A DNA stretch of 32,000 nucleotides from Candidatus Baldrarchaeum yapensis (GTDB taxonomy: Archaea; Asgardarchaeota; Baldrarchaeia; Baldrarchaeales; Baldrarchaeaceae). The notes beneath the pieces are model-generated. The model saw nothing but the letters and a program-made list of their open reading frames with translations, was not told the DNA's origin and made no database searches. The translations under genes were made by a program, and so were the position numbers. This document shows, piece after piece, positions 2,444 to 28,036 of the stretch (the first letter of the stretch is position 1; every line of letters starts with the position of its first letter). The stretch is taken from contig JAEOSH010000002.1 in the NCBI GenBank assembly GCA_016840465.1, positions 30,001 to 62,000 of the forward strand, written 5' to 3'.

Positions 2444-2531
2444 TGGTAGCCCGGCCGGGATTCGAACCCGGGTCCCCAGCTTTCTTCGGGGCTCCAAAGG
2501 CTGGGAGGCTTGGCCGCTACCCCACCGGGCT
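2444..2531 (-). tRNA. tRNA-Gln (anticodon TTG) with a 12-nt intron and encoded CCA
   Basis: Reverse complement folds as a cloverleaf: acceptor AGCCCGG/CCGGGCT, D arm GGGT/GCCT, anticodon stem CCAGC/GCTGG around CT-TTG-G, T arm CCGGG-TTCGAAT-CCCGG, then ACCA. The 88 nt equal 76 plus 12. Confidence 0.97.
2482..2493 (-). other. tRNA intron at canonical position 37/38 (AGCCCCGAAGAA)
   Basis: Central helix CUUU/GAAG with bulges GG^A and AA^A; removal restores a 7-nt anticodon loop. Confidence 0.9.
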
Positions 2532-22974: not shown

Positions 22975-24771
22975 TTATTTCCGAGAACTCCTTTTTATTT
23001 TCATTATCTCGTTGAGTAACTCCAGTTCTTCGGATGATAATTCCTCAGAGAACTTTAATTTTAACGTTCTGATGTGTGGCTCCGGCACGTCGACATAAAT
23101 TATATCTCCTTCTTTTATGTGCCTACCGACTATGGCTTCCCTTATAGATATTGCAACTTCCATACCCGCGGTTGCTTCCCGAAGACTCTGACCTGCCTGT
23201 TGAATTTGCATTATTTGACCTATATATTTTCCACTTGATGTCATAAGGGGATACCTAGGTCGTATTCTTCCGACGAGTACCTTAACCCCCACGATTGCCG
23301 GCTTACTTCTCCTAAACACATAACCCGGCAGTATCATTATTTTTGCCGGCATTATTATCTTTTCTAATGTCAATTTCTTTTCTTCTTCTCGCTTCTTCGT
23401 AACCCAATTATCGTAATCCTCAAGTAGTTTGTAGATTATGTTGCTCCAAAATATTGGAATGTCATATTTTTTAGCTTCCTCTTCGGCGTCCGGCAAAATT
23501 TTTACGTTAAAAGCTAGTATTGCTGCTCGATATGGATCCTTTTCCATGACAACTACCGCTTCCATGACATCACGCTTTGATACATCGCCAATACCTGCAA
23601 GTCTTATTGGAACATCATGTCTCCGTAAGTAATTTACTAGCGCTTCTAGAGATCCCAAGGTATCCGCTTTTAAAACAACACCAACCTTATCTGTCGAAAT
23701 TATGATCTTCTTGACTTCCTTCTCAATCTCGTCAACTACGGATTGTAACTCTGATTCATCCCAGACCGCACGCATTGGAGAGCCAGCAACAGCGCCTTCG
23801 AGATTTGGAGCGACAAGTTTTACTCCTGCGGCTGCCACCACTTCATCTACCGGTGTGAACTTCTCACGAGGATCCCTTATTTCATCTAAAGGCTTTGGTA
23901 AAAGTATAGCACGAAGTTTTGTGACAATAGGTCCCTCTATTCCTCCTATTACGATGATATCATCCTTTCTCAGTACTCCATCGTAGATTATCGCATTCAC
24001 TGTTAAACCGAGTCCGAGTTCTTCCTTTACCTCGAGAATAACTCCTTTTGCCGGCCCTTCCTTAAATTCGAGTTGTTTTTTCATGTAGCGCTGAGTCAGA
24101 CCGGCGAGTACAAGTAAAAGTTCAGGTATCCCCTCCCCCGTTTTTGCACTTGTTGGGACGATGGCAACTGTTTTTGAGAAATCAGTAACTCTATCAAACC
24201 TTTCAGCGCTGAACCCGACGGCACTCAAGGACCCGACTATTTGGTATATTTTTTCGTCTAAGTACCTCCTGACGGCTGGATCTTGCAGTTTTATTGATTC
24301 TGTAAAGTATTGTGTGGGTCCGGGTCTCCACCCGGGGATCCTGTCTATTTTGTTTGCGGCAACTAAAAATGGAACTCGCCTTTCCTTCAAGATGTCTATG
24401 CATTCCCATGTTTGAGCTTGGAATCCCTCCATTATATCAACTACTAGTATTGCGAAGTCTGCAGCGGCTCCGCCCCTAACTCTAAGGTTGTAAAATGCCT
24501 CATGCCCTGGAGTATCTATGACTAGGATTCCTGGGATTGTCAACTTCACTTTATACATTTCCATGAGTTTGCCACAAATTTTCTCAATTACGGGGGATGG
24601 AAAGAAGGATGCACCAATGTGCTGGGTCTAGCATCAGGCCGTGGAAAACGGCCTGATTATGCCCCCAGCCTCTCTTTGTTGGACGGCCGTCCCACGGATT
24701 TTATCAAGCAATGAGGTCTTTCCATGATCTATATGTCCCAAAACAACGCATATGGGCTGCCTTAGACGCAT
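22975..24771 (-). CDS. infB: Translation initiation factor aIF5B (IF-2), two exons: 24771-24658 and 24627-22975; 588 aa after splicing
   Basis: Exon 1 (38 codons, SD GGTGAGGTGA) encodes [38 protein letters not shown]. Exon 2 begins [10 protein letters not shown] and carries DTPGHE, NKID and SAKTGEG. The 30 nt between them contain in-frame TGA and TAG. Confidence 0.95.
24628..24657 (-). other. BHB-type mRNA intron in infB (30 nt)
   Basis: GCUGGG/CCCAGC 6-bp exon helix, GGCA/UGCU central helix, bulges UA^A and AG^A, 9-bp intron stem UCAGGCCGU/ACGGCCUGA with loop UUUCC. Confidence 0.92.
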
Positions 24772-24821
24772 AAGATCACCTCACCAATTAGCGTTAAGAA
24801 AACAAAGAGTACTTAGGCAAG

Positions 24822-24835
24822 CAAAAATATTTTTG
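24822..24835. promoter_or_regulatory. Perfect 14-bp AT-rich palindrome CAAAAATATTTTTG upstream of infB (promoter or operator candidate)
   Basis: Lies in the ndk-infB intergenic gap about 50 nt upstream of the infB ATG. Confidence 0.3.
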
Positions 24836-24840
24836 GCTTA

Positions 24841-24856
24841 GGAAAAGAAGAAGAAA
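24841..24856 (-). terminator. Pyrimidine-rich tract after ndk (possible archaeal terminator)
   Basis: Minus strand reads TTTCTTCTTCTTTTCC just after the ndk stop. Confidence 0.3.
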
Positions 24857-24862
24857 TGACGT

Positions 24863-25315
24863 TTAATAAACCATTCTATCACTGCATCTCTCATACTCGT
24901 ATAGTTCATCATCGCTAAAGAATATTGACATTTCGTACTTTGCTCTCTCTACAGAGTCTGCAGCGTGAATTATGTTCTTCGTTAGATTTAGTCCAAAGTC
25001 CCCCCTTATAGTGCCGGGGCTTGCCTCTCTAGGATTTGTCGCTCCAATAAGTCTTCTAACGACCGATACTGCCTCCTCGCCTTCTATGACCATCGCAACT
25101 ACGGGACCTGAAGTAACAAATGAAACTAACTCATCGAAGAAATGCTTACCCTTATGTATATCGTAAAGACGTTCGGCTCTCTCTTTATCCAGCCAAACCA
25201 TTTTGAGAGCTACTACCTTAAGACCCTTGCGCTCGATTCTTGAAATTATCTCCCCTATGAGACCTCGTTGTACACCGTCAGGCTTTATCATTACAAAGGT
25301 TCTTTGTATTGCCAT
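24863..25315 (-). CDS. ndk: Nucleoside diphosphate kinase
   Basis: [31 protein letters not shown] (phospho-His). Confidence 0.97.
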
Positions 25316-25319
25316 TTAT

Positions 25320-25526
25320 TCACCCTCGTTTCTTCTCCTGTTCCCTTCCTCTCCAGAACTTCGTCCATTTGAATTTTCTAGGGTCTCTGCCCATCTCTAT
25401 CATGGATATCCTACATTTGCTACTGCAGAACCAGAGAACCCTGCCATCATTTTTTACGTACATCATCCCTGTCCCAGGCTCTATTTCCTTTCCACAGAAT
25501 GAACATTTTTGCCCACGTAACATCAC
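25320..25526 (-). CDS. rpl24e: 50S ribosomal protein L24e
   Basis: CSFCG.EIEPGTG, FCSSKC, PRKFKWT. Confidence 0.97.
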
Positions 25527-25553
25527 GATTACCTCTTAGCCTCGCTACTCAGT

Positions 25554-25769
25554 TCACCTTACTGTGATCTTTCGTGCTTCACGTTCGGTTTCTCTTAACA
25601 TTAATATATCGCCAAGTCTAACCGGACCCTTCACATTCCGGGTGAGAATCCTACCTTTATCCTTTCCTTCTAATATCCTTACACGTACCTGTATGACCTC
25701 ACCAGCAACTCCCGTTCTTCCGATGATTTGTATTACTTCCGCTGGCGTTCCTCTGTCCTCGCTGCTCAT
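25554..25769 (-). CDS. rps28e: 30S ribosomal protein S28e
   Basis: [28 protein letters not shown]. Confidence 0.97.
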
Positions 25770-25788
25770 GAAATACCACCTACTTCTC

Positions 25789-26160
25789 CTACTTCTTCAG
25801 CTCTTTTAATTTTCTTATTATGTCCTCTACGAGTTCTTTCGCATCTCCCGGATCTATTATGCACGCAGATGCTGCCTTTACATCTATGCCCGCAGCGGCA
25901 CCCAGCCTTTCCTTACTTGGCACGTAGATATATGGGATGTTCTTTTCCTCAGCTAGTGGTGGGAGATGCATGACTATTTCAGGAGGATCTACATCCTCCG
26001 CTATCAGTACAAGTTTTGCCTGACCTCTTTCTATAGCTTTTGTTGTCTCATTAGTCCCCTTCTTTATCTTACCCGTGTTTCTTGCTATTTCAAGCGCCTG
26101 ATACGCCTTTTCTGCAAGTTCCTTCGGGACCTCAAATTTTACATATGGGGGTTTTGCCAT
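25789..26160 (-). CDS. rpl7ae: 50S ribosomal protein L7Ae
   Basis: [31 protein letters not shown]. Confidence 0.98.
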
Positions 26161-27773: not shown

Positions 27774-28036
27774 ATTCCATCTCCTCTTCAGCTTCTTCCT
27801 CCCTGGCAGGCGGGAAACTGAACTTCAATACTTCATCTATCAACTCCACATGGCTCAATAACATTCTTCTACAACAATATCTTTTTAATCCTAAATCATC
27901 AAGGACTTTTTTCGGGTCTTCACCACTTTCAACTCTTTTCTTGAACTCTTCCCATTTATCAGCAATAACCTTACCACATGTAAAGCTTCCCGCCACCGAC
28001 GGAAATTCGTCGGTGGTATCGGACCGGGATTATCAT
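27766..28036 (-). CDS. rpoN: RNA polymerase subunit Rpo10 (RpoN), two exons: 28036-28018 and 27986-27766; 79 aa after splicing
   Basis: Exon 1 ATG ATA ATC CCG GTC CGA T (SD AGGGTGA) plus exon 2 GC TTT ACA TGT GGT AAG gives MIIPVRCFTCGK. It continues with [17 protein letters not shown] and ends in an acidic tail. Confidence 0.95.
27987..28017 (-). other. BHB-type mRNA intron in rpoN (31 nt)
   Basis: UCCG/CGGG central helix, bulges AU^A and AA^G, 9-bp intron stem CCACCGACG/CGUCGGUGG with loop AAUUUC, and a short 2-bp exon helix (G-C, G.U). Confidence 0.9.

Follow-up and report, generated by a model that had tools for sequence, protein, structure and literature searches.

How can an archaeon make an essential translation factor from a gene whose reading frame is closed by stop codons between the P-loop and the switch-I threonine? 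This question is raised by the gene for aIF5B (archaeal IF-2) of Candidatus Baldrarchaeum yapensis, an Asgard archaeon. The gene lies on the minus strand of the 32,000-nucleotide stretch of DNA that we analyzed (the window), running from an ATG at position 24771 to a stop codon that ends at 22975. A preliminary description of this DNA proposed that a BHB intron splits the mRNA. Both aIF5B, an essential initiation GTPase, and the RNA polymerase subunit RpoN are predicted to be makeable in this organism only after splicing of the tRNA endonuclease type. In the literature searched, splicing of archaeal mRNA by tRNA endonuclease is documented only for cbf5 of Crenarchaeota.

The aIF5B reading frame is interrupted at switch I

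The unspliced DNA holds just two ORFs for this protein, of 45 and 529 amino acids (aa), the latter beginning at an internal Met60; the ORF list thus agrees with the earlier claim that only a 45-aa peptide or a 529-aa fragment lacking the P-loop could be made from unspliced RNA. To assign the family, we used the NCBIfam models NF003078 and TIGR00491 with their curated cut-offs, scored on the exon 2 ORF alone. The 529-aa ORF matches positions 68 to 592 of the 598 in NF003078 with 762 bits (cut-off, 468) and TIGR00491 with 712 bits (cut-off, 555). The 45-aa ORF matches positions 7 to 45 of NF003078 with an E value of 1.2e-17. Exon 1 (24658 to 24771, minus strand), recognized by its ORF, its translation, and this profile match, encodes Met1 to Ile38 and carries the P-loop GHIDHGKT. 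Exon 2 (22975 to 24627, minus strand), recognized by the NF003078 match of the 529-aa ORF, runs from Thr39 to the stop and carries the switch-I Thr, DTPGH, NKID, and domains II to IV. The open frame of the 529-aa ORF reaches 21 codons 5′ of Met60, up to the UAG of the insert.

The insert itself occupies 24628 to 24657 on the minus strand, in phase 0, between the Ile38 codon AUA (24658 to 24660) and the Thr39 codon ACC (24625 to 24627), so that the motif is divided as GGI|TQHIG; exon 2 continues straight after it with ACC CAG CAC AUU GGU. Sequence, ORFs, and translation all bear out the first reading of 30 nucleotides (nt) with an in-frame UGA and UAG at this place. The G+C content of the insert is 57%, compared with 42% for the window. 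Without the 30 nt, the frame encodes a 588-aa protein that reads ...REAGGITQHIGAS... and aligns without gaps to intronless relatives; here too the translation and the alignment uphold what had been described. The GTPase motifs G1 to G4 are complete in the spliced reading only: GHIDHGKT comes from exon 1, and the Thr of GGITQH, DTPGH, and NKID come from exon 2. At the DNA level, the predicted intron separates the P-loop from the switch-I threonine.

Is there another source of aIF5B, or is the gene simply broken? In this 96%-complete genome (2.27 Mb in 100 contigs) aIF5B is single-copy: a search for a second intact copy returned none, and apart from this gene the query matched only a distant GTPase. 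We considered that the locus could be a pseudogene, or could encode two polypeptides of 45 and 529 aa. Gene callers do read it so, and in the public protein record the start lies within the 529-aa ORF. However, this is the only copy of the gene, and it has no other lesion over 588 codons. Immediately 5′ of the ATG at 24771 we read a Shine-Dalgarno-like sequence, GGUGAGGUGAUC (24774 to 24785, minus strand), which favors 24771 as the true start and hence exon 1 as coding; a broken gene would not be expected to retain both this element and a perfect P-loop. No start codon is found from the insert to Met60, so a second polypeptide would lose the switch-I residues TQHIGA. Finally, as described below, three families have retained the insert and show compensatory changes in it. 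Taken together, these data make a broken gene very unlikely.

The version of aIF5B in the ESM Atlas begins at residue 3 of the 529-aa ORF (window 22975 to 24564, minus strand). The public gene call is N-terminally truncated and lacks the P-loop because of the predicted intron. Gene callers truncate genes such as this one, and here the public record starts inside exon 2.

The insert and its flanks form a BHB motif

We folded the pre-mRNA with RNAfold, and the result matches the complete hBHBh′ motif given in the preliminary description. The motif extends from 24621 to 24669 on the minus strand; we identified it by RNAfold, by pair counts over 8 genomes, and by the published definition, in which the flanking helices h and h′ of a strict hBHBh′ each have more than 2 bp (PMC3978253). 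It consists of an outer exon-exon helix of 6 bp, GCUGGG/CCCAGC (24664 to 24669 with 24621 to 24626); a central helix of 4 bp with one G.U pair, GGCA/UGCU (24660 to 24663 with 24630 to 24633); two 3-nt bulges on opposite strands, UAA (24657 to 24659) and AGA (24627 to 24629), evident from the sequence and the fold; and an inner intron stem of 9 bp (24648 to 24656 with 24634 to 24642), closed by the loop UUUCC (24643 to 24647). With two 3-nt bulges, a central helix of exactly 4 bp, and flanking helices of 6 and 9 bp, this is a strict motif. When each bulge is cut after its second nucleotide, the joined exons read GGC AUA/ACC CAG, with both GGI|TQHIG and the 588-aa frame restored. BHB motifs are reportedly cut at precisely this position.

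By folding energy, the region stands out only moderately (z = −2.94, with 2 of 200 shuffled sequences folding equally well). The argument therefore lies not in stability alone but in the geometry and in the fact that the frame is restored exactly. Apart from the tRNA gene described below, Rfam at the gathering threshold gave nothing in the window. A mobile repeat element was ruled out: the 30-nt sequence is unique, with no second copy in the genome within 4 substitutions.

These features suggest how the RNA would be processed. On folding of the transcript, the strict hBHBh′ motif would be built jointly by exon sequence (GCUGGG GGCA UA ... A CCCAGC) and the intron. A heteromeric endonuclease, composed of EndA alpha and a beta-like subunit, would then cut after the second nucleotide of each 3-nt bulge, and RtcB would join the exons into GGC AUA|ACC CAG and probably circularize the 30-nt intron. 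Only the spliced mRNA would encode a complete GTPase. We infer the cleavage, the ligation, and the fate of the intron from the motif and from the genes described below. Overall, the 30-nt insert is very probably a BHB intron in the aIF5B pre-mRNA, spliced by EndA and RtcB.

DNA contigs carry the insert

Since the genome is a metagenome assembly in 100 contigs, the 30 nt might be an artefact of assembly or sequencing. We therefore looked at DNA across the insert, a check that had been proposed, and found the 30 nt in contigs of four metagenome runs, some of which may be the source of the assembly itself. Contigs of runs X3, X4, and X5 cover 24450 to 24850 with zero differences and zero gaps, and run X6 contributes a 151-nt contig that spans the insert. 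In the DNA contigs of these four runs (X3 to X6), we saw no joint without the insert. Homologous inserts occur, moreover, in related genomes and in five JGI metagenome contigs. An artefact is thus extremely unlikely. A low-depth 141-nt contig of run X4, from another organism, matches the start of exon 2 (window 24597 to 24630) and, from the intron boundary on, has a different hairpin rich in G+C; it may be another stem variant of the intron at the aIF5B switch-I site.

The genome encodes the splicing enzymes

Two EndA paralogues are encoded in the genome, both carrying PF01974 and PF02778. One, of 193 aa, has the Tyr/His/Lys catalytic residues of EndA alpha; the second, of 195 aa, is without the catalytic His and has the features expected of a structural beta subunit. 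RtcB is present at full length (609 bits). The two paralogues lie at L036:1462-2043 (minus strand) and L037:1195-1782 (plus strand), and RtcB is encoded in L038. An EndA alpha and a beta-like paralogue fit the (alpha-beta)2 splicing endonuclease of broad specificity reported for Asgard archaea (PMC5829648).

This machinery appears to be heavily used, since ARAGORN called introns in 22 of 46 tRNA genes, that is, in about half, as a rough figure. The genome also has a gene for a eukaryote-type actin of full length (440 bits) and genes for six or more full-length Ras-family GTPases; such actins and GTPases are typical of Asgard archaea. The tRNA gene in the window (2444 to 2531, minus strand) is 85 to 88 nt long, compared with 71 positions in the Rfam model. 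ARAGORN reads it as Gly(CCC) with the intron option off; with the option on, it calls a 12-nt intron and a nonsense anticodon. This tRNA gene probably holds one or more non-canonical introns.

Inserts at the same site in other Asgard families

We compared aIF5B across 400 genomes of the phylum. An insert at the exact Ile|Thr site was found in three families, f1, f2, and f32, comprising 8 reference genomes. The genome of the window belongs to f1 and has 30 nt at this site. All 4 genomes of f2, which shares an order with f1, have 33 nt with an in-frame UAG, and all 3 genomes of f32 have 29 nt, which shift the frame. The rule of cutting after the second bulge nucleotide also works for the 29- and 33-nt versions. 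In addition, a pattern scan of JGI metagenomes returned five contigs, all of them aIF5B with f2-like 33-nt inserts and with extra stem variants. A related-locus search of genome contigs returned only distant or unrelated loci.

If the motif matters, its pairing should outlast its sequence. Alignment of related aIF5B genes, which had been suggested as a check, places the insert at the identical site in f2 and f32 and reveals covariation in the stem. In the 8-genome alignment of the window's own genome with f2 and f32, 91.9% of cells are paired, compared with 27 to 34% when the partners are slid, and the inner stem has changes on both sides in 7 of 10 aligned pairs. With no more than two or three independent lineages among the 8 genomes, these counts, like the codon counts that follow, overstate independence. 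In the central helix, pairing is 100% across the 8 genomes and one pair has changes on both sides; the 3-nt bulges are kept in all 8. As judged from these alignments, the stem sequence diverges while pairing is kept, and the compensatory direction is unambiguous.

Codon choice in the exons follows the same pattern. The codons GGG and ACC, which form part of the outer helix, are used together by all 8 intron bearers; among 27 sequences with no intron at the switch-I site, GGG occurs in 1 and ACC in 6. Codons build the flanking helices of the aIF5B motif, and constraints from protein coding and from RNA structure therefore overlap here, unlike in tRNA introns. The proposal that aIF5B expression depends on splicing by EndA and RtcB gains support from the single copy, the EndA and RtcB genes, the DNA contigs, the covariation in three families, and the choice of codons.

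Could the ribosome instead bypass the 30 nt, or recode the stops, without any cutting of RNA, in the manner of T4 gene 60? The likeness is real: in both cases a short, structured gap containing a stop interrupts an essential coding sequence, and in aIF5B a short stable hairpin stands in an otherwise intact gene. However, the candidate take-off and landing codons are not matched (AUA before the insert and ACC after it), as they are in T4 gene 60, and no stop follows directly after the take-off codon. What is conserved is the BHB geometry. Two 3-nt bulges 4 bp apart are kept in the 29-, 30-, and 33-nt versions and in other genes, although bypassing has no need of them. We consider bypassing or recoding highly improbable.

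A second site in the P-loop and the history of gain and loss

A different insert, of 29 to 32 nt, lies within the P-loop codons of aIF5B (GHIDHGK|T) in other Asgard families. These P-loop inserts were located at L007:1337-1400 and L008:1334-1400 and in L042, L043, L045, L058, and L059. In family f8, all 4 genomes of genus g8 have the insert and sister genus g41 is without it; in family f9, it is found in G021, G031, and G197, and most genomes are without it. The motif at this site is relaxed, with 3 of the 4 central pairs and an outer helix that is slight or absent. The P-loop insert of G197 did not fit the canonical BHB geometry under the criteria used. In another f9 genome, G181 (C92:23916-25431), the aIF5B match falls into two overlapping pieces near query residues 145 to 156; a frameshift, a sequencing error, or a further intron could account for the split.

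How often did introns arise at the switch-I site? In the aIF5B tree, f1 groups with f2 (98/96 support), adjoining the intronless family f6, and f32 adjoins the intronless family f3 (99/98). Forcing all bearers of the switch-I-site insert into one clade makes the tree 38 log-likelihood units worse (AU p = 0.038), and on this single-gene tree a single origin of all switch-I-site introns is disfavored. This single-gene topology suggests either two gains at the site or one old gain and several losses.

Other predicted introns of this kind in the same genome

We scanned the genome for further BHB hairpins. Two permissive scans were discarded, since their ORF-merging candidates were at chance level (361 versus 318 expected, and 64 versus 69); chance often produces loose BHB geometry in this genome, so that little is proved by geometry when it stands alone. 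With compact BHB hairpins having stems of at least 8 bp, the genome holds 9, compared with 1 to 4 in five local shuffles. The aIF5B intron has the longest outer helix among them.

Beside aIF5B, a second predicted intron lies in the window, 3.3 kb away, in rpoN/Rpb10. Recognized by the BHB scans, Pfam, and the spliced reading, it has 31 nt (27987 to 28017, minus strand) and falls in phase 1 inside the first zinc-ligand Cys codon (MIIPVR/CFTCGK). Its central helix is UCCG/CGGG, its bulges are AUA and AAG, and its stem has 9 bp. The unspliced downstream ORF matches positions 7 to 58 of the 58 in the Pfam RNA_pol_N model; without splicing, therefore, the protein would lack its first six residues.

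Beyond aIF5B and rpoN, the genome has at least three more such introns elsewhere, found in the compact-BHB scan in genes whose names are readings of motifs. Removal of the first, in a radical-SAM gene (G000:C66:13809-13837, minus strand), restores CxxxCxxC. A second, in a POR-gamma-like gene (G000:C56:106639-106666, minus strand), gives ...VLNTPMLGAF... when removed, and the third, in a UPF0147 gene (G000:C86:12830-12858, plus strand), gives back the C terminus. For all four inserts outside aIF5B, the same cut rule restores conserved motifs. The introns of this class in the genome are 28 to 31 nt long, with G+C-rich stems of 8 to 9 bp and no sequence similarity to one another.

The aIF5B intron is a member of a genome-wide class of hairpin introns of about 28 to 33 nt in Asgard housekeeping genes, and this membership in an apparently widespread class of mRNA micro-introns is its main interest. 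Its members appear to become established at places where one half of the BHB motif can come from exon codons. We lean toward the view that the class is Asgard-wide, that its members (about 28 to 33 nt, in housekeeping mRNAs) are removed by EndA and RtcB, and that they have been gained repeatedly at "proto-splice" sites, with the aIF5B switch-I site colonized at least twice (by f1 and f2, and by f32) and the P-loop separately. If this is true, protein-dependent mRNA splicing would be routine in those archaea that are most closely related to eukaryotes, and the affected Asgard genes would be systematically truncated in current annotations.

Might these hairpins serve mainly for control? The aIF5B hairpin could be an EndA site at which cutting or conditional splicing ties the supply of aIF5B to tRNA-splicing activity. 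The motif is a perfect EndA substrate, it sits early in the mRNA of a translation factor with a second one at codon 7 of rpoN, and both introns strike invariant residues, so that the unspliced RNA would be dead. Nothing observed supports conditionality, however, and with aIF5B single-copy and essential, efficient splicing would be needed anyway. Similar introns are found in metabolic genes without an obvious need for such control, and their sporadic spread among families resembles neutral gain and loss. A mainly regulatory role is therefore improbable.

Relation to known splicing systems

An intron in the cbf5 pre-mRNA is reportedly found in Crenarchaeota, namely, in Aeropyrum, Sulfolobus, and Desulfurococcales. 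In the literature searched, cbf5 is the only archaeal protein gene with a confirmed BHB intron, as Yokobori 2009 (PMC2738675) also stated. Like aIF5B, it has such an intron in a protein gene, removed by tRNA splicing endonuclease (as predicted for aIF5B), in hosts with a hetero-oligomeric EndA and with a patchy phylogenetic pattern of gain and loss. The differences lie in the host gene, here a translational GTPase; in the phylum, here Asgard; and in the number, with several such introns per genome. Furthermore, the splicing of cbf5 has been shown by experiment, whereas that of aIF5B is inferred from sequence. In the full-text literature searched, which covered few subscription journals, we found no report of an aIF5B intron or of an Asgard mRNA BHB intron, in line with the preliminary description, whose author knew of no aIF5B mRNA intron.

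The nearest counterpart within the phylum is found in tRNA genes. Asgard tRNA introns have been gained repeatedly and are sited where the splicing motif can form (PMC11291895; bioRxiv 10.64898/2026.10.13.758758). They share the motif and the presumed enzymes with the aIF5B intron, and many of them are short and lie at non-canonical places. Both reports cover tRNA genes only, with mRNA unmentioned, whereas the aIF5B intron lies in an mRNA.

In eukaryotes, HAC1/XBP1 is an mRNA with a spliceosome-independent intron: Ire1 cuts paired stem-loop sites, and a tRNA ligase or RtcB joins the ends. As in the splicing predicted for aIF5B, a protein endonuclease cuts and a tRNA ligase seals, and the spliced mRNA encodes something different from the unspliced one. 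The nuclease, Ire1, and the cleavage motif are different, however, and HAC1/XBP1 splicing is a regulated stress response. RtcB is able to seal splicing of the HAC1/XBP1 type (Tanaka 2011, as cited in PMC5829648).

As a substrate for Asgard EndA and RtcB, the aIF5B intron is compact and testable. Its recurrent site and matching codon choice also make it a concrete system for studying how introns become established within coding sequence, in the lineage nearest to eukaryotes.

Neighborhood of the aIF5B gene

The region at window 24863 to 26160 (minus strand) holds several genes upstream of aIF5B on the same strand. Nearest is ndk, checked by Pfam; further upstream are three small ORFs that we read by eye as ribosomal proteins L24e, S28e, and L7Ae. 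An A/T-rich, TATA-like stretch is found about 55 to 65 nt upstream of the aIF5B start.
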